Source: Pocillopora damicornis (Eukaryota). Taken from it: DNA of 64,000 nt. This document shows positions 383 through 41,143 of the stretch, piece by piece. The stretch lies in contig NW_020847264.1 in the NCBI RefSeq assembly GCF_003704095.1, positions 1 through 64,000 on the forward strand, given 5' to 3'. Position 1 is the first letter of the stretch. The number at the start of each line of letters is the position of its first letter. The notes below the pieces were generated by a model, which saw only the letters and a program-made list of their open reading frames with translations, did not search any database and was not told where the DNA came from. Position numbers and translations under genes: made by a program.

Positions 383-2032
383 CTTACACGGTCGCCTTCT
401 AGAGCTATAACTCTCTTTATTAAGGCAGCATCAGGATCTGTGGGATCACTAGGTTTATATAAAATAATAAGGGAAATCATAGCAATTACAATCATGTTGT
501 AGCTGTGTTTTGTAAACAGCCAATTGGAATGCCTCCTGTTAGGTTGATTTTAAACCAACCCACCATCTTTTCTTGAATAAGCACCCCCACTCTAATAAGC
601 ACCCTCCCCTCCCCTGAAATAGCACCTACCCTATCAGCTATCAAATTAAACAAGCACCCCCCTCAAATAGTGCCTGCCCCCCCTTCTGGCTCCCCCTCAC
701 TTCCTTAAATAGTTATTAGGATACAAAGAAAACCTGTACGGGATTTGAACCCATGACCTCTGCAATACCAGTGCAGCGCTCTACCAACTGCACTAACAAG
801 CCAACTGGGAGCTGGTCAATGTGTTGGGTCCAAATAAACCATCCAAGAGATGAATGATGATTTTAGATATATGAAATTCATATATTTGGACTGCAGTGAA
901 GAGATGAAATTAGGAGATCCTTGCAGCTAAGAACACCACTGAAATGAGTAAGTAGTTGAAAATAGGATCTGAATAAAAAATTCAGGCCTGTACGGGATTT
1001 GAACCCATGACCACTGCAATACCGGTGCAACAACAGTCTATTGATAACAAGTTAGGGTTAATGTTGGGTTAGGGGAGGGGTAGGTGGGCAGTTGCCCAGA
1101 TACTGATATTGATCCTTAATTAATACTTAAATACATACCCCCCTCCATCAAGCACCCTTCTGCCATGTTAGCCCCCCCCCCCATTTTAGCCAAAATTTTT
1201 AATAAGAGCCCAGATGCTTATTCAAGGAAATATGGTACTGACCTATTTCAAATACTGTGAGCATAATCATTATTCTTTATCCAAGAGTAAATTAGTCTTC
1301 CTGATCTTGTCAGCAAAAATAATGGTAATTAAAATTTCACCCAAATGTGAGGCTTGCAAGGTTTATCTACCTGCACAATGAAGAATGATATTCTAGCCCA
1401 CCTTTCACATAAGAAGCCTGAAATGTTCATACCATTGTCTTTGTTTACACTGAACTGTAGAACTTTTCACTTACGTCAAAGTAACAATGTCTCCTCTGTT
1501 AATTCCTTCAAATCGCCGGACAGCCCAGCTGTTGACAAGCACTACATCACTACTTTTACGTGGATTGGGATTTAAGGTTGGCTGGGCAGAAAAAAAGTTA
1601 ATAACAGCCAATTAATAAAATTAATGAACTATTGATAATATAGAATATTTATATTCTGTTTATATGGCATATTATAAGAAACTCTGCACGCCAAATCTTA
1701 ACCCTATAACTCCTTCATGCGTGACCAATGAGTAATTTTTCTCCACAATATCAACACATTTTCAAACAAAAAGTGATAACACAAAAAATTTCAATCTCAG
1801 AATACAACAACAAATTCTCAGAGCTTAAATTTTGAGATATGTGCGTAAGAGAGTAAGGAAATTTAATATCAAGGAAAGAACTCCTGAAACTCACTTGCAT
1901 AGAGATGCCAGTTACACCTTTGACGCTTCCTACATAGTCCACGAATGTGATAACCACAGGTACACCAATGACAAAACCACGGGTAAACATTCCAAGAACG
2001 TTTATGTATGGTCTCACTCTCTGGTAAACCAT
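383..2032 (-). CDS. IMMP2L: Mitochondrial inner membrane protease subunit 2 (partial; 3' exons outside window)
   Basis: GT-AG exons 2032-1895, 1581-1475 and 448-383 join in frame: ...VGSVKGVTGISMQ|PTLNPNPRKSSDVVLVNSWAVRRFEGINRGDIVTL|TDPTDPDAALIKRVIALEGDRV. This gives the S26 peptidase GxSMQPTL Ser motif and the IKRV Lys motif. Confidence 0.92.
733..1030 (-). mobile_element. Same tRNA-derived family as a partial tandem (unit about 254 bp)
   Basis: CCTGTACGGGATTTGAACCCATGACC at 733 and 987; shares sequence with the 6932-7320 arms and tail. Confidence 0.75.
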
Positions 2033-2330
2033 AGCGATTTATTCAAATGTGCAGTTACTGAAATCTACCAGTCAGTTTATCATATTTTGAGAATGTGAGT
2101 GATAGATCCTCCATGTTGTTTTCCGACTTGCATTCAGGAACGAGAATAGCCTGGGAACAAAACTAGTATCATTCGTACCAGTCCTTTGAAGCTGCGCGTT
2201 CAACATGGCGCATGAGGTTTGTGCGGAAAGCGCGTTTATTTGAAGGTCGTTGAATTGAGTTAAGATTGGTCGAGTTTTAAAATGGTTTCATCAGAAGATA
2301 GTATCATTTTGTTTTAAATTTAACTCAACC
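2033..2330. promoter_or_regulatory. Putative bidirectional promoter, IMMP2L/NUBP1
   Basis: Divergent start codons about 300 bp apart; locally CpG-richer; CAACATGG (YY1-like) on both strands and an ATTGG (reverse CCAAT) box near 2266. Confidence 0.55.
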
Positions 2331-5300
2331 ATGGAGGCGGATGGTGATAGAGCAACTGCGATTGGATGTCCTTCACAGACGGTGAGTTATTCTAGCAACT
2401 TGGGTATCTAAATTTGTAGCAACCTACCATAATTTGGAGGTGATGGTCTGGGTCTGCGTGATGATTGGTCTTCTTTCGTCCTTCTAATCGCTCGGCAGAA
2501 ACATAATACTGACCTTACCATTATCATAAGTGGACCCTCAATAATGGTATGGACCTTGCTTATGCTTCTCAGGGGCGTGGAAGCTACTGGGGTGTAAATG
2601 GGCCTTTTCAAAGAAGGGGGATGGAGGTCACACTGTGCCACACCCAGGGTACCCATGCGAAAGATATTTTTCAGATGAGTATTGAGTGATTGATACTGTG
2701 TAGATCTTCAGGAAGAACCTTCATAATAATTTCTGGAAAGTGTGATGAAGAAAATACAATGATGGTGCCAGGTAACTTTTCATTACACAAGCTGTACCTA
2801 AAGAGTGGCTTCAGGTATAGTCCAGTCAATGTAATTACCATAATATTCTTTTATCAGTCCCTGGCAGGTAAAGCTGCTGTATGTCAAGGATGCCCAGGAC
2901 AGTATCTCTGTAGTCAACAAGGTACATTGTTTTCAAACATTAGATTTTTAAAATAACACATGCACACCATTAACTTGGTTCAAGCTTAAATTTTACAAAT
3001 TATACAAAATATAAGAACACTGTACAGCTAGCTTGGCCTGTTTTTTTTTATATAATTATTATTCTCTGACATACATCATAATTTCTTTGAAAAGATTGAA
3101 TTCCCCCACATGAACATATTTCAAATTGAGGAAAGCTCTTTACTTGCTGGTGTCTCCACAGTGAAATATGATAGAGAAATTATAGAGTAAAATCACTGGG
3201 GGCAAATTGAAATTAGTCCTATTTTGATTGTTGTAAATCTAATCAAACATCAGTTTTTGGCCATGAAAAAAAAATTGAAGTACAGTATATGCAAAGAAAG
3301 GAAAAATTTGGTCACTTGGTTTAAAAGTCCTAAAGCTCATTTTTTACGTTAATGATCAACAGGTGTTTTGGACCCAGATCAAGAGATGATTGATTTGCGA
3401 ATGAATGCAGTCAAACATAAGATTCTTATTTTATCAGGAAAAGGGGGTAATAATGTGTTGTAGTCTTGAATTAATTTCAGATCATAATGATTTAAATCTA
3501 GTATGATTTGATTTTCCTTTGTTCTGGATATGTTACCTTAATTCTTAACAAAGGAAACACAAATCAAGCTGGTTGAATTCACTTATCACTTTCAACTGCA
3601 ATAAATTGTACACGGTACCGCAATATACTATTTTAAGTCAATCAAATTGAAGTTAGTTTCCTAGTTCATTATATTTGAATCTAGGTTTGACTCCTTCTTC
3701 CTTGCACCTGTCTTATCATAAAGGACCTCTTGTTGCAGCATTTAGATCACCTCTGATGTAGGCACCAGACGGGAGTGTCAAAACATTAGGTCTATGAATT
3801 GTAACTTCTCAGTTTCACTCATTAAATCTTTAAACCAGATTAGCATCAAACCATATCTGAGTTTCACTCCTGTTTCAAATTTTTACTTCTTTTTTATGAC
3901 TCATTACACCAATTTTAAAATGAAAAAGTACATGTCATAATTATTGTCGTAAACCATCTTAATTCATTACTAAAGCTGCCTATTTTCTTGCATGGTTAAC
4001 CCTTTAATTCCCAGAAGTGATCAACATGAAACTTCTTCCGATAATATCCTTACATTATCCTGCAAACAGCTAATGAGAATATTCAAACTTATCAGGTAGA
4101 AGTTGTTGTCTTGATCCAACACCAAATTCTCATAACTAATCTACGGGGATATGTGCAATAGCTAGAAGGGAGAATTACTAATTAGAACTTGGCAGTGAAA
4201 GGGTTAAGTAATGGGAAAAGGTTAACATTATGGCCAAGACTGAAGGAGTTGGAAGGGCTGAAAATTCCTTACAACTTACCAGCGTGGATATCTTTCTCAA
4301 AATGTCCAAGATCCAAGCATGGTGATTATTAAATCGGGAGATATTGCAGGTGGATACTTAGCATAATATTTTGTAATTAGCTTCCAACCAACAGGATTAC
4401 ATATTCTAAGCCCATTGGAATTCTACAGCACCATTAGGAATCAAAATAAAATTACAAACCACATAATTAATCAGTGAAGATTTTTTTTTTAAATCTGGAT
4501 TTTTGTAGGAGTTGGTAAATCAAGTGTGGCTTCTAATCTTAGCATGGCTCTTGCTAACATGGGCCAAAAGGTAACATTATAAGACATGAGGTACTACATC
4601 TAGTAAGGGTAGAGCCGGTGTACACTGAAAATATTTTTTACATGTGTTACTGTGTACAAGGACAGAAGTATTATAAATGTCAAAACCACTTAACCTTTAA
4701 CCCTTAAGAGCGATTAGCATCTAATTTCCCCTTATAATATCAGCCCTGAATCAAACATTAAGGTCATGAGAATAAAGGAAATGATCAACAAGTACAGGAG
4801 CTCTTGATTGTTGAGCAAAATCTCCTTGTCAGCACCCTAAGAAATGTATGGAGAACAGTATGGAGATTATGTATAATGATGTTAGGTTGTAAAGGGTTGA
4901 TGAAAAACCAGGTATTTTGCAGTCGTGTAAATTTTTATATCCTGACTGAGGGATATACAGTCTGTTTCGCTTGAACTCATTGTAGTATTGAGAGGCTTTA
5001 TTTAATTCTAGTAATTCTTTCTCTGATCAGTAAAAGAAGGATATTTATTTGAATGAAAAAAAAATTGACAGGGTTAGTGGCACTTTAATGTCAATGTTGG
5101 GGGAAACATTATACAACTCAACCTCTCAGTTTTGTACTTGAAATAAGCCACTTTTCTTAAGAGTTCAAACTATCTACACTCCACCATACATCACAAATAC
5201 AGTGGCCAAATAAACTCTTAGGGGATGCATTAACTATACAATGAACATGTTGCTGGTCAAAGTGGAATTCAGGTTAAACCCTTTACACCCTAACATCAAT

Positions 5301-8300
5301 ATGCATATTCTCCACACTGTTCTCTATACATTCCCTAAGGTGCTGACAAGGAGAATTTGGTAAACAATCAATTGCTTCTTTGGCTGGTGATCATTTCTTT
5401 TTTTTCTTTTGATCTTGATGTGTGATTCAGGAGTGATATTGTAAGGAGATAAATATTAGATTCTAGTCATTCTTATCGGTTAGAGGGTTAAAATGATTTC
5501 AGACTAGGTTGATTTGTATTTCTTTGATTTTAAAACAATCAAAATCATAATTTTTTATTAATGAAATGAAATACAAATTGTAAGGTAGTTACAAATATGT
5601 TTGACCCAAATTCACTTTATTTAAATGACATTTGGTAAATTGGGACAAATTTTAACTTTGGTTTAGGTGGGGTTAGTGGACTTGGACATTTGTGGTCCAA
5701 GTGTACCAAAGCTAATGGCAGTTGAAGGACAACAAGTCATTAACTCACCATATGGATGGACTCCTTTGAAGTAAGAATGAATACATACTTCTAACNNNNN
5801 NNNNNNNNNNNNNNNNNNNNNNNNNNNNNNNNNNNNNNNNNNNNNNNNNNNNNNNNNNNNNNNNNNNNNNNNNNNNNNNNNNNNNNNNNNNNNNNCTTTT
5901 TTTGTTGGAAATTAACTAGTGTGAATATTGAAGGGCTGCGGAAAAAGATAGTGCCAAAGATTTAATTGTAAATAGAATATGAAAGATGGTATTTTTAAGC
6001 TCGGTATCGTTAATAAATGGAGAAGGATGTTTTTCGTCTTGTCTCGAGCGAGACACAAAGAAAAAGTTCCATGAGAAATCGAACCTCAGACCTTCACATT
6101 CCTCGCTCTGATGCTCTACCTCTGGGCCATAGAGATTCTATGGTGAGCAAGGCCCTTTACAAAGTTCATATAATTGGAAGACAAAATTTGACCTTATCAG
6201 GTATTTGATTGTTTCTCAATACGAACTTTCAAAACTAGACAAAAACTCTCAATTGCTGTTAAGGATATGACGTCTTTGAAGACCCTGCGGCTGACAACCG
6301 GGCGAGAGGAAACTATTATTCAATTGAGTACCGGAAGTAATCCGCAATTGCTTTGGTTATATCTAACTTTGCTCTGTGATTGGCCATCCTCTCAACCAAT
6401 CAGATGCAAAACTAAAAACAATCGCGTCTTGATCAATCGCATTTTCCCACGCTTCAAGCAGTTTGTTTGTTTTCACTTCGAGTTTTCATCAGCTCACCCG
6501 TGAGATATCGAGTTCAACACTCGAAGAGAAATTCTCTATCTACGCGCGCCATGTATTATTCTCTATTTAACAGACACACCACCCGGCACATCAGATGAAC
6601 ACCTAACTGTTGTCAAAGCACTGAAAAACGTCAATCCTGATGGAGCTGTCGTGGTTACGACGCCTCAAGAGGTTGCGTTGGCAACGATTCGCAAGGAGCT
6701 GAATTTTTGCCGAAAGATGGATTTGACAGTGTTAGGTATCGTGGAAAATATGAGTGGCTTTGTTTGCCCGTACTGTCAGGTATGTTAAGTATTTAAGCTA
6801 TATAACAAACTGCTTGCGCTTGCTCCTTGTGTTGTTAACACAACCCTTGAGATAGTTGCCAGCAATCAACCTTTACAAGGTGCTAATTATATTTATATCT
6901 TTTGTTTAGTTTGAGTTACGAAGCAGTTATGTGAATGAATGTGATCCTCGCAGTAATGTGCACTACTTAGGCAGTAGTGAAAATAAGGCCTGAAAAAAAT
7001 TCAGGCCTGTGCGGGATTTGAACCCATGACCTCTGCGATACCGGTGCAGTGCTCTACCAACTGAGCTAACAAGCCAACTGGGAGCTGGTCATGATGTTGG
7101 TCATGATCATGACCAGCTCCCAGTTGGCTTGTTAGCTCAGTTGGTAGAGCACTGCACCGGTATCGCAGAGGTCATGGGTTCAAATCCCGCACAGGCCTGA
7201 ATTTTTTTCAGGCCTTATTTTCACTACTGCCTAAGTAGTGCACATTACTGCGAGGATCACATTCATTCACGTCTTTATCCGCAGTTCAAATATATGACTT
7301 TCATATATTCTTAACCGTTTGAAGCAGTTATGGTTTATGTTTTTTCACTGGCTTAAGAATAAACGCACTCTGTTAAAATTGCTTTATTGTGTTGATAAAC
7401 GTTCAGGAATGTTCAAACCTGTTTTCTTCTGGTGGCGCTGAAAGACTCGCTAGTGAAAATGGTCTTCGTCTCCTTGCAAAAATCCCGTTAGATCAGGTAT
7501 TATATAAAAAAAAAACTTATTATAGTCATTTTTTATGATAGTGACGTTTTGTTGTTGCTGTTAATGATGATGGTGATCATAATAATAGTACTGTAGTTAT
7601 TGGTGTTGTTGATGTTGTTTGTCTTTTTGACTTGATGATGCCAACGATGGCGATGACTGTGATGCTGAAGCTTCTACTGATACTGACCTCTATTAGGCAG
7701 CCAGCTACGTGGAATGCAAAAACCCAAAAGTCATTTTCTCTCAAGCTCTGTAAAAATAGAATTTCTTTTAGAACAAGTTTCAATAGGGTGTCAAAAGTAG
7801 TCGGAATGGCTTTAGTTTTGCTTTATCTCGCCGCGTGACTGGTCCAGATTACTCACGCCACTTTTTTCAACCAATCAGATTCAAAACTAAAACCAATCGA
7901 GACATAGTCACTCGCGTTTTCCCGCGCTTTAGATAGTTTACTTGTTTTGAATTTTAGATCTCATTGGCTCCTTGTGACGTTTTCCTTTCTCTGATTGGTT
8001 GTCAATTAGTTTTGGTTTTACGACGCTAAGTCGTAATGCGCTCTTAGTGGCACAAAGTTCACTTATGTGTGAGCCGAATATGTCTGCCTCTTTGGGAGAG
8101 AGAGGTCTGGGTTTGGAAAGCTATTTCGCATACACTTAAACGAGGAAACTATGAGGATTTATTTGTTTTCAGACCTATACTTTCTCGTAAACGGGAGCTT
8201 TTAACGTTTCACTGTGTTTTTGCTTTTTGCTGTAGCTTGTCAGAAACCACCATTTCGATAAATTATTTGCATGACACGCAAGTTTTTCTTACATTCGAAA

Positions 8301-8456: not shown

Positions 8457-9477
8457 CGTCATCTTGACTTATATTTCGTCCTCTCTGGTGATTGCTGGTC
8501 GTGCATCGTCGCACAAGTTTATCTTAACAAAATTGTTTTAAATCCAGTAATCTGAAATGCTCTGGGACTAAGTGTTGATATTATAGAGTAACAGAAGAAG
8601 TAACAAAAAAATCAAAATGGGGAACGCGAGTTTAGTCTCGTCACGCAATCAATAGAACGTGGCGTGACAAAGCAACGAATTCCGGGTACCAAAAATTTGT
8701 GAACAGCTAGTGTAAAGCGAATGTTAATATTTAATTAAAGTTTCATTTTTATGGGGATCTAAAAGATTATAGCAATATTTCAGACATGAATAATACTAAA
8801 ATTATGGTTGAATAAGCAGTTTGTTTATATCTTTAACTTATTTGAAAAGCCCTGTATAATGATGCGTTTGAAGATATTGTTTTATAAATTATGTATAGTC
8901 AATTGTAAGCCAGTTATCACTCAAATATTTTACAGGATTTGATGACTAGTACTTTCCGGACTATTTGTTAAGTAGTGCATAATTTAGGAAAATGATTGAA
9001 AACTTATTTCAAGTCTAGTGATTTTTTTTTTAATACTAAATGTGCCACCGTAGTCGGACCGTACGGTGTAGAAGCGTAGTGAGGCCATTTTTGACAAGAA
9101 ATTTCTAGAAATTTGAAAATAAAGTAATAAAAGTAGTAAAGTGAGATCTTTATATGTGATTATGTCTTTCATATCGCAGCGTAAGACTCAAGCTAACAAT
9201 CGTGAGTTGCTCTGGTTAAGGATGTTTGAATTTTTTATCTCTTACGTTACTAAAGGTTGTTTTGCACGTAATTATGTTTATAGGAGGTCCACGTTCCTAC
9301 AAGGCAGATGTTATGCTGGCTATTACCTGTATCTATTGTTAGAATCAGAGGTGATTTTTTATTTATTTCTCAGTTTCAAACGCGTAGTTTGAATTGATTT
9401 CAAGGAGAGTTTACCAAATCCCAGGCGCCTTTAAAATTTGAATATTGCGTGACCGAAGCACTATCCAAACATCCAAT

Positions 9478-11680: not shown

Positions 11681-14600
11681 ATGGATAGTGAGGTCATTTC
11701 AGAGGAAGGCTCGGTTCAAAGCTCAAAGGGTTTTAAATTGTTTACCAAATCTTGGAAACTGAAAGACTCGAATCCACGGTGAGTTGTCACAATGGACATA
11801 ATTCTTATCGATCTCATCCTCTTTTGTAGAAAAGCAACAAGTATTCGCTATTTAAATTTTTATTTTTTTGGGGTGGTGACGGATTTATGACGGCTAAGAT
11901 CGGTCTTGTGAGGCTTTTATGTCAGGGTGCCATGGAAGGTAAAGCGAATTTTCTGTTTTGACTGAACTTACTCTAATACTAGACGCATATTTGCGTTCGT
12001 GCCTGTCTGGCAAATCGTGACAAACTTGAATAAAATTTGTTTCCAATATTCATCATTTGTATTAGATCATTTGCAGTGCCGATCCCCTGTGAGTTATTGT
12101 AAATTAAAGAGCAAAAACTCATAGCAACACATTGTTGTCCTGCATTCTGTCCGAAAACTACTCGTTACCTTGACTATATGGAGCTACTATGGTTTTGTTA
12201 GGGTCAACACATATTGGAGAACCAGGATTTTTTTTAGTTGCTACAATTTGCTACATGAGCCTCACTCTTACTAGAACACATTAGTTTGTTACAAGAAAAC
12301 AATGTTAAATATCGACTGGCACGATATTTCATCTTTCACAACAGTTAAACTTAAACGTTCTTTTTATTTAATAGTTTTTTAGCATTTACCTAACAGTACA
12401 ATGTAGATGACATAAGTATACATGAAAGAATAATTGCATAGACAAATTCTCTAATCTTCCTGCTCTTAAGCTTGTTCCTTAAACTATTCAAACTTTGTAT
12501 TGGTATTCTGCTTGGTTATGATCACGTCTACATACACGATGAGATTTGCATTTATGCTTCGCTCTCGATTAACATTGAATAGCTCAGTTGATATAGCATG
12601 TTTCTCGATGAAAGGTTTACTCCACAGGCTGCCCAAGCTCCAGCTGTGAGATGATCATCATGCGAACTAAGAGTTGTGGCAAAATTATGAGAGTTTGCAT
12701 GGGAAAAGTTACGATTGCTTTTTGGAATACAAAAATACAGTCAAATTCTCAATGAAAATACCTCATCTTGCTTCCACAGTGCATTGCTTTTTATCTGACC
12801 GCTTACTATGTTGGAAGAACCCATTTTAGCAAGTTATCCATTTCCAGGTGTACTTTGTAGTAAACCTAGAAATGTTTAACTCACTAAAATGGGTTCTTTT
12901 CAACTATATTTTTGTATTCCTAAAAGCAGTCATAAATTTTCCCATACAAACTCTTATAATTTTGCCATGACTCTTATTTTGTTAGATGATCATCTCACAG
13001 CTGGAGCTTGGGCCACCTGTGTTCACTCATAAATGTTGACTCATAGAGAGGTCTCTAATAAGGTTCACGGACTGACCCATTCTGAAAACAGTCGACATCT
13101 TTTAGTGTGGTCTACCACAAATGCTCGGTGCGTTTTGAGCATATTATACACAGTATCTGTGCTGATTTTGCATTGCAAAGATCTTTTTTTTTGCTGTCAT
13201 TGCATCATGCCATGTGCTCATCAGTCAAAACATCACACATGCGTCAGGGTCAAAATGTCACACATGTGTAAAGAACTTGACTGCAATTTGCAACTGAGGT
13301 TTCCTTTGGAAAGCCCAAAGTCTTCAAGGGTCAATGAAGGTACACCCATTGTAAAGGGATTGGATAATACAGGCTATCTATCCATCCATGAACAAGGCCT
13401 AGCATTGAAATTTTTTTTTTTTTGCATCAGGGTGCCTTTGGTAACTGAATCGCTGGAAAGTTTTAGTAAGGATATGAGTTGGATGGTATTGCATTCAGCT
13501 CTTCATTGGCATAGCTCCAGAAAATATCTAAACCAGCCACAAGATTGATTGTAGCAATGTTTTTTTTTGCATTTGTTAGTGCATTGATATTTGTGAGCCA
13601 TGGAGTTGGTGAGCATTGTTCCAGATATGAAGAATTTGGAAGTGTTTTAGCCAGACAAGGCTTCCTTGTTATTTCCCATGATCATGGTAAATTTTTCAAA
13701 TATTTGCAAAGAATGAATTGCCTTTCTTGTTTATATGTTCCTGGGAGGGGGGGAGGGAAAGTTTGCTTTGGTCATTTTTTCCTGGCTATGTCCCTCTCTC
13801 TATGGACTCTCAGAACCCCCACCCCACTATAGTCTATTCTTTGGCCAATTAAGGACCCTATCTAAGACCCTTTTGCTAATACAGTAATAACTTTTTAACT
13901 GCAAATCTTCCCATTTTTACATCCCTGCCTACCAAAATTATCTTACCTACAAAATCCAGAAAAATGTGCAACCCCATTCTAGAAACTCTATGCAGGCGCA
14001 TTATAATCAATCCAGTCTTGAAAATGCCACCTTTTCCAGCAAAACATACCTATTAGCCAATTACTAGGAAGTATCCTCTCCCCCGGGGTCAGTCGTAAGA
14101 AATTCAACTATTACTTTAGTGTCAGCATGAATGGCAAAATATGAGATTTAATTAATTTTAATTATAATAGAGATGAGATTGTTTTGTATGCCCATCACTT
14201 GGCTACATTGCTATGGACAAGAGAGAGATTTACTTGACTCATTCCTACTGTGCAGAGTAGTTCAGCATGAAAGTTTTGTTTTATTTATAGTGGGTCATGG
14301 AAGGAGTGAAGGTGAACCAGTGCAGATCTCGTCCTTTGATATTTATGCTGCTGATGTGTTGAAGCACATGGATGAGAAGCTTGTAAACCATGGTGGTCTG
14401 CCAATATTTCTGTTTGGTCATTCAATGGCAAGTTTTCATCCACCACTGTTTAATTGAAGGTCTAGTTTAGAGGTGATTAGGTGGAGGAGGAAGGAGATGG
14501 GGAATTTATCTGTGTGGTATATACTAAAACAATTATTCACCTCAGTGTTGGTAAAAGTGGTGGATATTTACCTTGCTGCTTTAGGGCTCGGTAAATGTCC

Positions 14601-23000: not shown

Positions 23001-25688
23001 GCATATGAACTCCGGCCAAACAGCTAACCTGTGGGTAGATGCTCTGTCAGCCTCGTTTGCAGGAGTACAGGTAACCATCGTAGATTTTTTAANNNNNNNN
23101 NNNNNNNNNNNNNNNNNNNNNNNNNNNNNNNNNNNNNNNNNNNNNNNNNNNNNNNNNNNNNNNNNNNNNNNNNNNNNNNNNNNNNNNNNNNNTGTTTTAC
23201 TTTCGTCGACTCAGGTGCTTAAAGGGGACATCAGGGAAGCCATTTGTACGCATGCTCTGTATTATGCGATCTGGAAAAAGTACGAGGCTATGCCGGAGAG
23301 ATTCAACTGGCAAACTAAACAGTCAGAGGTTCACTTCTCTCCATTACGACCAGAGCTGATTGAATCAACTTACCTTTTACATCAGGTGAGATGCTTGATA
23401 AATAGGAGATCTAGGAGACGTGGTGGCCTCATGGTTAGCGCGCTGGACTTCAGCTGGAGAGGTCTGGGTCCGAGCCCTGGCCGATTTGGGCAAATTACTT
23501 TACTCTCGCCGTGTTTCTTTCCACCCAGGAATGTATTGCATACCTGATCAATTTGTCTGTTTGTCACAGGCCACCCATCACCCGTTCTACCTCCACGTTG
23601 GCAGAGAAATCATGAGGGACATAGAAAAACACAGCAAAGCAAGGTTCGTGTGTGTGATGTTGTTGGTTTTTGTTTGTTCCTTTGTTTGGTTTCGTCTTGA
23701 TCACCTGAGTGTGGATCAGTTTTCGGCTGAAATTGGCAAGTTTTGAGGGACGAAAGTGTGGTGCTGAAAAGATATTTTAAACTCCTGTTGAGAGAGAATT
23801 TGAAGGAGCAGTATTTCTTAAATATTGCAGCAATAATTAAAAAATAGTCATCGAAGTGGAGGTGAATAGAGGTGGATATTTCACCGAATTGTTTTAGTAT
23901 ATACCACATAGTGTATTTTTTTCAATATCCCGAAAAATGGTCGAAAATTTAACTCTTCACGCGCTATTTTGTGCCATCGACTACTTAGAATTCCGAACCA
24001 GCCAGTCAGCGCGCGCGAAAAGCTCTATTCTTGTGGTACATACTGACAAACGTTTACTCTTTTTATGCCGCTAAGCTATGATTGATTTTGACTGCCTTTT
24101 GATGCACTTTGCCATTTTCAATTGAAGTTTTGTTTGGTTTCAGATGTGGTTACGCTACCTTACATGATGTGAATGACAAAACTCAAGAAGATAGGATGGA
24201 GAGCTTCTTCTTGAGTGAAACGTGCAAATATCTTTATCTCGTAAGTACTGAAGTATTTGTAACTGATTACCACTTGCGAGTGTACAAGAAATGAAAATGT
24301 AGAAATGAAATGATAATCTTGAAAGCTCACCAAGAACTCGTTCTTTCACTGGATCAATCTAAAATAGCGTAGCAGCGTAACGCTTCGAGCCGCTTTGCCT
24401 TAGTGTCAAATGTAATTCAGGAGTAGATTGGCTTTGCTTTGCCTCGTGCTGTGATTGGTCTACAATCCTGGTACCACCCTCACAACCAATCGGATGCAAG
24501 CAAAGCCATGCGCGTTTTCCTGCGCTTTATCTGGTTTACTTGTACTCACTTCGTGTTCTTACCTTTGCTCTGATTGGCCGCAGTGATAACTTTGGTCTCG
24601 GTTTCATAGCACGTGACCCAAACCCCCCAAGCGACTGATTGTTTCTTTTTTTTCACAGCTATTCGATGACAACAACCATCTCAACCAGGACGCTTCAAAC
24701 TACATTTTTAGCACAGAAGGACATGTCTTTAGAATCGACTCTCGGTTTAGGAAAAGGCCATGGGATGAAGAGACAAAAATGTTTGCACAGAGGACAACGA
24801 AAAGAACTTTCAACACCCAGTCCTCAGGGGGTTATAATGACAGTATTGGGGTAGGTGCCCTTGAGTAGGCCTTGAGATTTTGTTGTTTAGTTTGTTGTTT
24901 GGTATTCTTTGTGTCAAGTATACAAAGTTCCAACACGTTGATTTGTTTGTTTGTTTTTTTTTTATTTACTTATTTTGCTCGCTTTCGTTCATTTGTTCGT
25001 TTTTCTCTGTGTCCTTTTGTCCGTGCATTGGATCTGTAACTCGTTTTTTATCTCGCTTCTTGGTTCGGTCAGTGGGAATTTTGTTTGTGTGTTCCTTCAA
25101 TACACAATTCCCTCGGTTGTTCGTTTGTTCAGTCGGTCGGTCGGTCAGTCGGTTGCTCGGTAGGTCGGTCGGGCGGTCGGTCGCTGATTCGGTCTGTCGT
25201 TTTGTTAGTCGGTCGGGCGGTCGGTTCGTCGGTCTCTCGGTGGGTCAGTTTGCCGTTCGCTCGGGTGGTCGTTAAGTTGGTCGTGCTTTTAGGAGTTCGT
25301 TTCTTTGTTCGGTGATCTTCCAAGTGTTTGTTCGTTTCTTTGTTCCTCTTCATTTCCCCTTTGAGTTCATTCCTTTGTTTTTTGTTGTTTTGTTCTGTCT
25401 TTGTTTGTTTGTCTGACTTTCTTTTTTTTAATCGCTGAATGTTTGGTTACCTCTTGGAACCAATCAATCAGCGAAACGCAGCGAGCGAACCATGGAGCGT
25501 ACACGCGAAGCCTTCTTGTACGTGTTTTGTTGTTCGTTCGTTCTGTCTGTTCTGTTCTTATCAATGATACTTTCATCGGTCACTATCTATTTATTTCTCA
25601 GTGCGTCAGCTTTTGTAGTGACCTGAATAGTCCTCTACCAATGGACATTCGATACTGGAAAGAAGTAGAAGCAGCAGTTGGTGTATGA
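20086..25688 (+). CDS. EDEM1: EDEM1 (GH47 ER degradation-enhancing alpha-mannosidase-like), downstream exons
   Basis: Exons approx 20086-20269, 20615-20706, 21786-21868, 22950-23070, 23215-23385, 23570-23643, 24144-24240, 24659-24850, 25602-25688. Motifs [57 protein letters not shown]; short EDEM1-type C-terminus. Confidence 0.92.
23420..23530 (+). mobile_element. tRNA-derived SINE remnant
   Basis: GTGGCCTCATGGTTAGCGCGCTGGAC (A box) ... GGTCCGAGCCC (B-box-like); related remnants near 45684-45830, 60890-60940 (-), 6060-6140 (-) and 34330-34410 (-). Confidence 0.55.
25125..25315. repeat. (GGTC/GTTC)n degenerate tetranucleotide microsatellite in EDEM1 intron
   Basis: Visible GTCGGTCGGTCGGTC arrays; explains the spurious SVGR-repeat ORFs. 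Confidence 0.85.
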
Positions 25689-39386: not shown

Positions 39387-40573
39387 GCTCGATGACTTAA
39401 AACTGAAGCAGCGATGCTAAACAGAGGCATTTTGGATGATAAACGCGATCCATACTGATTAACGTAGGAGCCCATTACCCAGATAGTGGGTTAGTAGTAC
39501 TGCCAAAGTATATTCAATCGCTTTTGATCAAACTGATAAGATGATTTCTTGTTTTGTTGGATTAAATGTATTTGGTTATCGTATTACAATGGAAAGAAAC
39601 AGCAAAAATCTAACATTGCTTAAAGGCAGTCTAGTGTTAGAACTAAGGGAACTTCTGTCAGAGAGGGTGAAATTCGTTAAAACACGAACGTAACTTTCTT
39701 GCCTTTTTTGTGCACAAAGAATGCAACTAAATAATAAAAAGGAGTCGGGTTCTGGCAGCCGGATAACCAGGAAGAGGTGAACAAGTCAAGCTGGCTAAGT
39801 CTCCGTTGCTAGTGTGTGCTGAAGCGACGAGCAGCTAAGCCGCGAGAGGATTGGGACAGAGGATAAACATATCTACACCCGCGTCTCTGCCGGTCATGAC
39901 TTGCACGCACAACTGCGTCAGATGTACAGGGCATATCAGGTTTCGCTCGGGACAGACCTCATTAGTTTGTAGTGCATTTTCGTCCTTCTTGTACATAACT
40001 TCACACATGATCAGCACGCGCTCTATAAAAAAATAGGGAAAGAAAGTGTGTTTTTTTTTAATATTATGTATGGCCTGAGCTTATTGTGAGCTAGATCATC
40101 ATTTTGCCTTGATCAGTTAGGGTGATTCACTCTTTTCTTTTGGTTCTGAGTTAGACAAGAACTTTTTATATATGTAAAGCAGATATTGACCAATTCTTAG
40201 AGCAGAATATATGAACAATAACCAGAAACACCAGCGGTAGCAAATATTATTGTGATGACATTGTAAAGAATTAAATGCATGTATACAAGATAATACTACT
40301 CCAAAAATTAGCGAGGGGCTTACGTTAAACCCCTCAACTCACCGAGGTGATTAACATATAACTTCTCCCCATAATATCCATACATTATCTAGCAAACGGG
40401 TAATGAGAATACTCAAACTCATCAGGTAGTAGTTAAATTGATCTAACACAAAAATTTCTTAAATTATACTTATACAAGATAATGTGTAGCAGCCAGGAGG
40501 GAGAATTAAAGAGCTTACCTGGCTCCGCGCTCCGGGAACTGCGATGCAACTTAGTCCGGCTATGGGCTAAGGA

Positions 40574-40577
40574 TGAA

Positions 40578-40622
<45 letters not shown>

Positions 40623-40819
40623 TATAGCAGGTAATTTAGTGTTAACAACTGGGTTGAAAACGTAAATTAGCCACCGTAAAGAGTAAAAAAGCTGACGTTT
40701 CGAGCGTTAGCCCTTCGTCTATCGCTCTGACGAAGGGCTAACGCTCGAAACGTCAGCTTTTTTACTCTTTACGGTGGCTAATTTACGTTTTCAACCCAGT
40801 TGTTAACACTAAATTACCT
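40574..40819. mobile_element. Penelope-like non-autonomous insertion: 50-bp tail plus 96-bp perfect inverted arms, 15-bp TSD
   Basis: Arms 40624-40719 and 40729-40824; GCTATGGGCTAAGGA at 40559-40573 and 40820-40834; carries a hammerhead motif. Confidence 0.8.
40724..40757 (+). ncRNA. Minimal type-I hammerhead ribozyme motif
   Basis: GCT-CTGACGA-A-GGGC-TAAC-GCTC-GAAAC-GTC-AGC: core CUGAnGA and GAAA, stem II GGGC/GCUC, palindromic ACGU stem III, GUC cleavage triplet, stem I GCU/AGC. Confidence 0.78.
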
Positions 40820-41143
40820 GCTATGGGCTAAGGACTTTCATAAAATATCAAAGTTTCACATTTCTGGCTCTCCTGTTATAATTAAGCTTCTCTTTCTTTG
40901 TTCTATTCTTCTATATTTACTTTCTCTTCTTACTTCTTTGTTACTTTTCGCTTGTTTCTGTTAGTATTAATCAATCTTTCGTTGTTGTTGTTGTTGTTTT
41001 GTCGTGGGAGGGGTAGAGGGTAAAGTTTTTAAAATCACATGACAGTAAACCCTTGTAGACCCGACCGTTTGAACTGCTCATGCGCTGTAGTTGTCAACTC
41101 ACGTACACTCCAGTCGGCGAATGAACAACATGAAATCAGGGAA

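Follow-up and report, generated by a model that had tools for sequence, protein, structure and literature searches.

A tRNA-bearing repeat with Penelope-like insertion geometry in the coral Pocillopora damicornis and its possible passage through the tRNA-splicing pathway

The stretch analyzed here, the first 64,000 nucleotides of contig NW_020847264.1 of the coral Pocillopora damicornis (assembly GCF_003704095.1, forward strand; hereafter the window), carries at positions 6920-7332 a non-autonomous element built on a tRNA; the insertion is genuine and young and has the geometry of Penelope-like elements (PLEs). The element is a 248-nt repeat, arranged head to tail, with its tRNA-like domain in the middle of the unit (unit 54-126). 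The reading that we favour, with a probability of roughly 0.45, is that this non-coding tRNA repeat is copied in trans by a Penelope-like protein possessing reverse transcriptase (RT) and GIY-YIG domains, the template being an RNA circle predicted to be excised by TSEN, the endonuclease of tRNA splicing. If true, a mobile element would replicate via the tRNA-splicing pathway. The kind of parasitism practised by short interspersed elements (SINEs) very probably extends to PLEs through this repeat, which numbers thousands of insertions in a coral genome. A literature search found no account of tRNA-based non-autonomous PLEs or of TSEN use by a retroelement; Repbase and Dfam lay outside that search, and the repeats may be entered there under SINEs.

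Structure of the window insertion

Every structural feature that an earlier reading of the window (hereafter the original prediction) had listed for this insertion was found again at its place. Two 165-nt arms (6931-7095 and 7106-7270), separated by 10 nt, exhibit 100% complementarity and are followed by a 50-nt unpaired tail (7271-7320) that terminates in three T and is devoid of poly(A). The 12-mer at 6920-6931 is repeated at 7321-7332, where base composition leads to an expectation of ~7e-8 per position; the target-site duplication (TSD) measures 11 or 12 bp, since the left arm shares one base with it. ARAGORN and Rfam both report outward-pointing tRNAs at 7003-7075 (-) and 7126-7198 (+) (53.1 bits, anticodon GGT). 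The insertion, 401 bp in length, lies within an intron of a NUBP-type gene. An empty site is documented in three of four DNA-type runs, in which one contig joins 6919 to 7321 with a single copy of the 12-mer; these contigs show a few per cent divergence from the window, and the remaining run returned only separate pieces flanking the insertion site.

Alignment to the 248-nt unit resolves the left part of the insertion as an inverted 5'-truncated piece (unit 28-198) and the right part as a direct piece (unit 35-248). The arms of the window copy are not terminal inverted repeats (TIRs), and the palindrome is not the basic form of the element. Rfam also reported microRNA matches within the insertion; they fall under the Rfam cut-offs, reflect the palindrome only and were rejected.

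Insertion geometry of family 1

A genome search with this repeat (family 1) returned 1,878 candidates, 40 of which were scored. The counts of geometry come from 60 loci that reduce to 45 distinct insertions once 15 duplicates are dropped, and young copies are over-represented among them because the loci were ranked by likeness. Two outward 3' ends, with an inverted 5'-truncated copy, are present in 28 of the 45 insertions, and in 22 of these 28 a short end (unit 196-206) is paired with a long end (unit 244-248), the tail standing on either side. Nearly all one-ended copies (16/17) terminate at one of the same two 3' sites. Head-to-tail junctions occur in 27 of the 45 insertions, the 5' ends are variable, and 56 inversion ends are scattered over unit 2-226. 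In two-ended copies the TSD averages 12.8 bp (range 9-16, n=26); as a control, the TSD finder was applied to 300 random trials and reached at least 11 bp in two of them. Some of the tallied TSDs are doubtful (an internal repeat, a microsatellite and, in family 3 described below, several internal repeats). No A-rich or simple-repeat 3' end was seen in family 1 copies. Related copies, both tandem and inverted, were retrieved from other corals at ~80% identity (122 loci); these loci were selected with a pattern that covers the anticodon-loop motif CCGG, and they are consequently no evidence on loop conservation.

Copy number was estimated from an unselected sample of the 234 Mb genome, made up of 80 stretches that total 786 kb and start from round coordinates of large contigs. 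It contains nine family 1 insertions, which corresponds to ~2,700 genome-wide (95% range 1,200-5,100). This and the estimates for the other families are rough, since they rest on 80 stretches only, at round coordinates and on large contigs.

The perfect 165-bp inverted arms of the window copy could suggest a DNA MITE (miniature inverted-repeat transposable element), a foldback element or an artefact of the assembly. The original prediction had proposed fixed TIRs and a TSD of constant length as the distinguishing signs of a MITE; instead, each copy has its own inner joints and arm lengths, the ends are asymmetric, the TSD varies in length, and 17 of the 45 insertions carry no inverted arm at all. 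An artefact is contradicted by the same layout in contigs of other corals and by the empty sites that back the TSD. We regard this explanation as extremely improbable. An ordinary tRNA SINE driven by a long interspersed element (LINE), with tandem and inverted forms as by-products of, for example, twin priming, would account for the tRNA origin, the variable TSD length and the thousands of copies. It is nevertheless very unlikely, and the original prediction had already set the window copy apart from such a SINE: the tRNA lies mid-unit, with 77 of the 139 tRNA-bearing copies extending at least 50 nt upstream of the tRNA +1, and the copies end not in poly(A) or a simple repeat but at two fixed 3' ends 50 nt apart that are used in pairs.

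The Penelope connection

Descriptions of PLEs mention partial tandems, an inverted copy on the 5' side and a tail that may stand at either end (PMC8557442; PMC8969392), the tail and the inversion being named as hallmarks (PMC8557442). In the in vitro work reported for a PLE of Anolis, the protein nicks and extends both strands of the target and uses two internal RT start sites, the tail being the interval between them (PMC11167929). Two such start sites account for the pairing of a long with a short end in each insertion.

A local comparator is provided by the hammerhead element at 40.6 kb in the window, which is the pseudo-long terminal repeat (pseudo-LTR) of a Penelope family possessing RT and GIY-YIG. 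The arms of this element (40624-40719 and 40729-40824) match without mismatch, its tail of 50 nt occupies 40574-40623 and its 15-bp TSD stands at 40559 and 40820, so the shared geometry pointed out by the original prediction is borne out. In locus L134, the comparator pseudo-LTR stands after the RT and GIY-YIG frame. The family is very abundant and young (1,871 pseudo-LTR candidates and 1,180 endonuclease candidates; window 40559-40834, L131, L134, L150). Its copies carry a tail-less inverted arm in 21 of 30 cases and a TSD of 14.2 bp on average (n=22). Inversion breakpoints, tandem units and TSD lengths, which the original prediction had proposed to tabulate against PLE insertions, follow a PLE-like pattern in the 45 family 1 insertions when set beside this family. 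A non-autonomous, tRNA-derived element with Penelope geometry, as originally proposed for the window copy, is thus supported both family-wide and against the local PLE pseudo-LTR, and family 1 is very probably mobilised by a Penelope-like element. Many insertions of the comparator family consist of the pseudo-LTR palindrome alone.

The search for an autonomous partner covered the GIY-YIG family, RT and endonuclease matches as well as 60 extra 3' regions. The endonuclease search gave 150 matches, apparently all of the comparator family, of which 30 were fetched, their 3' ends being left out of the comparison. Fifteen of the 16 terminal letters are common to the tRNA element and to a PLE family devoid of endonuclease (EN-less; 0/400 shuffles, one of 77 comparisons); the rows for L416 and L502 in this comparison are uninformative. 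Three observations weigh against the proposed partnership. The homology of the tail to an autonomous element, which had been expected, was not recovered: blastn found none in 93 PLE loci (11 clusters and 8 singletons, from at least 151 RT matches), nor did any of the compared 3' regions hold a tail homologue. The 16-letter terminal motif differs in the other-coral lineage, and the TSDs of family 1 are ~1.4 bp shorter than those of the comparator family.

In the EN-less PLE families (L130, L133, L139, L148, L149, L155, L156, L248, L278), the frame ends after RT, neither a GIY-YIG domain on either side nor a hammerhead is seen; their 3' end comprises ~80 nt, the last 16 letters resembling the long end of the tRNA element. 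An older family 1 copy with a different tail is nested in the 3' end of one EN-less PLE copy (L248, ~1420-1670).

The tRNA mimic

Among seven sampled kinds of host tRNA, the nearest to the tRNA-like domain is tRNA-Thr (51-52 of 73 positions identical), while tRNA-Lys reaches 47-49. The domain carries C33 and an A31-C39 mismatch and lacks the U33 and standard loop of a functional tRNA gene; nine of the 30 best Rfam tRNA loci that were fetched are in fact copies of the element, called as tRNA-Thr(GGT). Its stems are maintained by compensatory changes: the acceptor pair 7:66 is swapped between P. damicornis and other corals, and between family 1 and the related family 2 (see below) three acceptor and three anticodon-stem pairs are changed with pairing kept. 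The T-run after the tRNA is kept in all three families that we describe. No hammerhead core is readable in the 248-nt unit, nor does Rfam report one, a weak search given that the minimal hammerhead at 40.7 kb escaped it as well.

One use of such a domain would be that of an internal promoter for RNA polymerase III (Pol III). Transcription of a Penelope-mobilised element with a promoter of the Cassandra or Helenus style would begin at one tRNA and continue through the T-run into the following unit, so that linear multimers would serve as template. The intact A and B boxes and the precedent reported for LTR elements (PMC10886601) are consistent with this explanation, and 5 of the 15 truncated own-genome copies start within 4 nt of +1 (P 0.013), a point in its favour and against a splicing-derived template. 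Pooling removes the excess: of 62 truncated ends, 7 are no further than 4 nt from +1 as compared with 6.2 expected (P 0.43), the other corals contributing 2 of 47. A pile-up of 5' ends at +1, hinted at by the first copies, was therefore rejected. Like a tRNA gene, the domain has a T7 run directly behind it, at which a Pol III transcript would be expected to stop, short of the tail. A natural dimer, L013, spans two tRNA starts, and neither a paired acceptor stem nor a palindromic loop is necessary for a promoter. We consider the promoter explanation unlikely. Because copies span the 5' end of the tRNA and +1 is not enriched in the pooled set, the template usually spanned this end and was multimeric or circular. 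The breakpoints hence lend no support to the suggestion of the original prediction that the tRNA serves as a Pol III start or as a cut site for RNase P/Z. Its broader idea, that a tRNA module stands in place of a ribozyme, survives in a different form, as a predicted substrate of tRNA splicing.

Anticodon loop and predicted tRNA splicing

A paired cloverleaf, a T-run behind the tRNA and a self-complementary anticodon loop are common to family 1 and to two further families. Family 2 (L460-L489; seed L181:1655-1800) is an older sister family with a period of ~257-259 nt, ~2,100 estimated insertions, and two tandem and three inverted cases. Family 3 (L490-L519; seed L081:2165-2330) is built on a different tRNA body; its period is 259-261 nt, its insertions are estimated at ~4,500, and 10 of its 14 two-ended copies display the Penelope-type layout. 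In family 1, loop positions 32-35 read CCGG in 47 of 55 own-genome copies, which were picked by similarity, and in 4 of 7 unselected copies, the three others being one CpG-type change away. In family 2 they read CTAG (21, 24, 20 and 17 matches at the successive positions among the 26 loops parsed out of 30), and in family 3 the majority line gives GCGC, with loops of 7 or 8 nt parsed for 27 of 30 copies. These data suggest that the self-pairing loop is probably under selection. Two tRNA-derived families that were not seen in Penelope layout exhibit the loop CTCC (4 and 6 copies).

With the cloverleaf paired and the anticodon loop self-complementary, two tandem units fold in silico as an intron-containing pre-tRNA. 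Folded without constraint, the natural dimer L013 returns a chimeric tRNA body with 3-nt bulges; under constraint, two separate cloverleaves reach -74.0 kcal/mol, as compared with -84.6 and -80.0 kcal/mol when the strands are swapped. Constrained folds favour the strand-swapped forms in both L013 and a second natural dimer, L335. In family 3, the cofold of the 7-nt arm corresponds exactly to a 4+3 motif, i.e., a 4-bp helix with a 3-nt bulge. The rules deduced from reporters for metazoan TSEN comprise a strong C-G/G-C proximal pair, a bulge of 3 nt and a distance of 6 nt from the end of the exon (PMC6614914), and the 4-bp register of the swapped arms would present these features; in families 1 and 2 this register is possible but less stable. 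Downstream steps have precedents as well: the excised tRNA intron is circularised by RtcB in the same reporter work (PMC6614914), a bulge-helix-bulge inserted in an mRNA is cleaved by Xenopus TSEN according to a review (PMC10485636), and retrozyme monomers are circularised in vitro by RtcB (PMC7229834). The genome of P. damicornis holds two matches to the TSEN catalytic domain and one RtcB gene.

If we assume that these precedents apply, a read-through transcript of two units would swap strands between its anticodon arms, yielding a pre-tRNA-like body with a bulge-helix-bulge-like junction, the intron of which would be exactly one permuted unit. TSEN would cleave at or adjoining 37/38 and RtcB would close the unit into a circle, the end chemistry after TSEN being the same as that which hammerheads give to retrozymes. 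The PLE protein would then nick both target strands ~12-13 nt apart and prime one cDNA from each internal start; the two starts would leave one insertion end with a tail and the other without, and copying around the circle would produce the head-to-tail runs. A unit-length circle made by TSEN and RtcB is a tentative proposal, modelled from these folds. If the TSEN step is true, such elements would need a cut leaving 5'-OH and cyclic-phosphate ends, whether by a ribozyme or by a host enzyme, and they would represent a natural non-tRNA substrate for metazoan TSEN.

Several results speak against this mechanism. The free fold of L335 is not chimeric, and that of L013 forms only the outer tRNA body. 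The most stable duplex in families 1 and 2 is a helix of 6 bp and not of 4, and tighter helices are reported to reduce splicing in fly and human reporters (PMC6614914). The loop has 8 nt in 23 of 27 family 3 copies and then fits only with an extra bulged base, the exact 7-nt form being found in 4 of 27. CTAG is native to the host tRNA-Thr(AGT), from which family 2 may merely have inherited it, and the loop of tRNA-Cys also self-pairs. Only about two independent origins of the loop can be counted, since families 1 and 2 are related. The loop test was not blind: one family 2 copy was visible beforehand, and the family 3 seed was chosen after its loop had been seen. The 5' ends do not pile up at the predicted cut (2/73 within unit 91-99), and contigs from RNA runs that contain the repeat, although many, are uninformative on strand, ends and circles.

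The stable 6-bp duplex, formed from a 6-nt palindrome with the 31-39 pair opened in families 1 and 2, is also what one would expect if the loop were a kissing or dimerisation signal, which would bring two templates of uncut RNA to a PLE protein working as a dimer. In Anolis the PLE protein is a predicted dimer that extends both strands and for which ribozyme cleavage is dispensable in vitro, as described in PMC11167929, and the insertions display two cDNA ends. On the other hand, the palindrome of family 3 comprises just 4 bp with a remainder of 3 or 4 nt, the 31-39 pair is restored in 7 of 26 family 2 copies, and both the regeneration of head-to-tail units and the retention of the acceptor stem are left unexplained. 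Dimerisation of an uncut RNA is in our view rather unlikely.

Comparison with known systems

The nearest relatives in design are the non-LTR retrozymes of animals, described as non-coding tandem units of ~220-260 nt in corals that have large TSDs and are linked to PLEs (PMC7229834; bioRxiv 10.64898/2026.07.22.740005). The tandem periods of the three tRNA families (248, ~257-259 and 259-261 nt) fall inside the retrozyme range of ~170-400 nt, and the TSDs of family 1 are likewise large. In contrast, a complete tRNA mimic replaces the hammerhead core, and the circles are predicted only. The families may, tentatively, be viewed as ribozyme-free retrozymes of corals: Penelope-dependent pre-tRNA mimics of which TSEN would excise one unit, RtcB circularise it and the Penelope RT recopy it, with at least two different tRNAs recruited.

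As in PLEs and their non-autonomous derivatives (MRC1 and non-autonomous Chlamys elements, as described in PMC8557442 and PMC11167929), the copies are 5'-truncated partial tandems with an inverted 5' piece, a tail at one end, two RT start sites and no poly(A). The tRNA element differs from PLEs in having no open reading frame, no ribozyme and no clear 3' homology among the 93 loci. Its tail is 50 nt long versus 30-40 nt in these descriptions, and equals that of the local PLE family. Being short and sharp-ended, the copies offer many natural cases in which the origin of PLE tails, inversions and TSDs may be followed.

The TRIMp3 elements Helenus, Ajax and Cassandra (PMC10886601) resemble the tRNA element in placing a module derived from a small RNA in a repeated terminal unit and in being non-autonomous and distinct from classical SINEs. 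As described there, they differ by their LTRs, primer binding site, polypurine tract and TSD of 4-5 bp, while the coral element has no internal region and a TSD of 9-16 bp. With the tRNA intronic circular RNAs (tricRNAs) of PMC6614914 and PMC10485636, the element would share a tRNA body with a bulge-helix-bulge-like junction, cleavage by TSEN and closure by RtcB, all predicted here; in distinction to the introns treated in these sources, the predicted intron is a permuted copy of the element itself, made by two tandem units.

The tRNA-derived SINEs of the SINE2 class possess A and B boxes, a tRNA origin and a variable TSD. The coral element shares these three traits and departs from SINE2 by its mid-unit tRNA, conserved acceptor stem, T-run behind the tRNA, missing A-rich tail and tandem or inverted layout.

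Features of the window and other repeats

The features of the insertion, its host site and the comparator are collected in Table 1.

Table 1. Mapped and predicted features of the window discussed in the text
Feature	Position	Strand	Basis
Left copy of the TSD (11-12 bp)	6920..6931	+	repeat of the 12-mer; empty site in 3/4 runs
Inverted piece of the 248-nt unit, truncated at its 5' side (unit 28-198) and terminating at the short tail-less end	6931..7101	-	unit alignment
tRNA-like cloverleaf of the inverted copy	7003..7075	-	ARAGORN, Rfam
Spacer of 10 nt at the inversion joint; joint position differs among insertions	7096..7105	.	arm mapping
Direct copy of the unit (unit 35-248), terminating at the long tailed end	7107..7320	+	unit alignment
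tRNA-like cloverleaf of the direct copy; A and B boxes, acceptor stem fully paired	7126..7198	+	ARAGORN, Rfam
Anticodon loop 32-38, self-complementary CCGG, C33 not U33	7157..7163	+	sequence; folds
Predicted splice-type cut	between 7162 and 7163	+	inferred
T7 run directly after the tRNA, within hairpin 7193-7215; Pol III terminator-like (role inferred)	7202..7208	+	sequence
Hairpin with compensatory changes among lineages and families	7222..7240	+	alignments
Tail of 50 nt separating the two preferred 3' ends; hairpin 7290-7308 inside	7271..7320	+	copy alignments
Right copy of the TSD	7321..7332	+	12-mer repeat; empty site
Host intron, NUBP/ParA-type Fe-S assembly gene	6780..7406	+	PF10609 match of the upstream exon, E 3e-25; GT/AG from sequence
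Older copy of family 1, ~1.2 head-to-tail units	733..1029	-	sequence match
Pseudo-LTR fragment with hammerhead, from the Penelope-like family used as comparator; 15-bp TSD, 50-nt tail	40559..40834	-	copy comparison

A different dispersed repeat flanks the insertion on both sides, with copies of 104 bp at 6392-6495 and 7867-7970 that are 77% alike. Elsewhere in the genome, loci L069 (~9200-9430), L085, L116 and L279 contain a tRNA-like part in the middle of a repeat with a conserved upstream segment, an AT-rich end and a non-palindromic loop. Low-stringency ARAGORN output was discarded as noise. Six tRNA-Lys(TTT) genes are clustered within ~7 kb (L430-L433, L443, L455; G000:C1122, ~406-414 kb). 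In the window itself, old copies of a conventional-looking SINE with the tRNA head first are found at 23416-23560, 45678 and 60941. A possible MITE at 12623-13021 consists of 119-bp inverted arms, 87% identical, that enclose a middle part of 160 bp, and an imperfect palindrome of ~130 bp covers 35974-36103.

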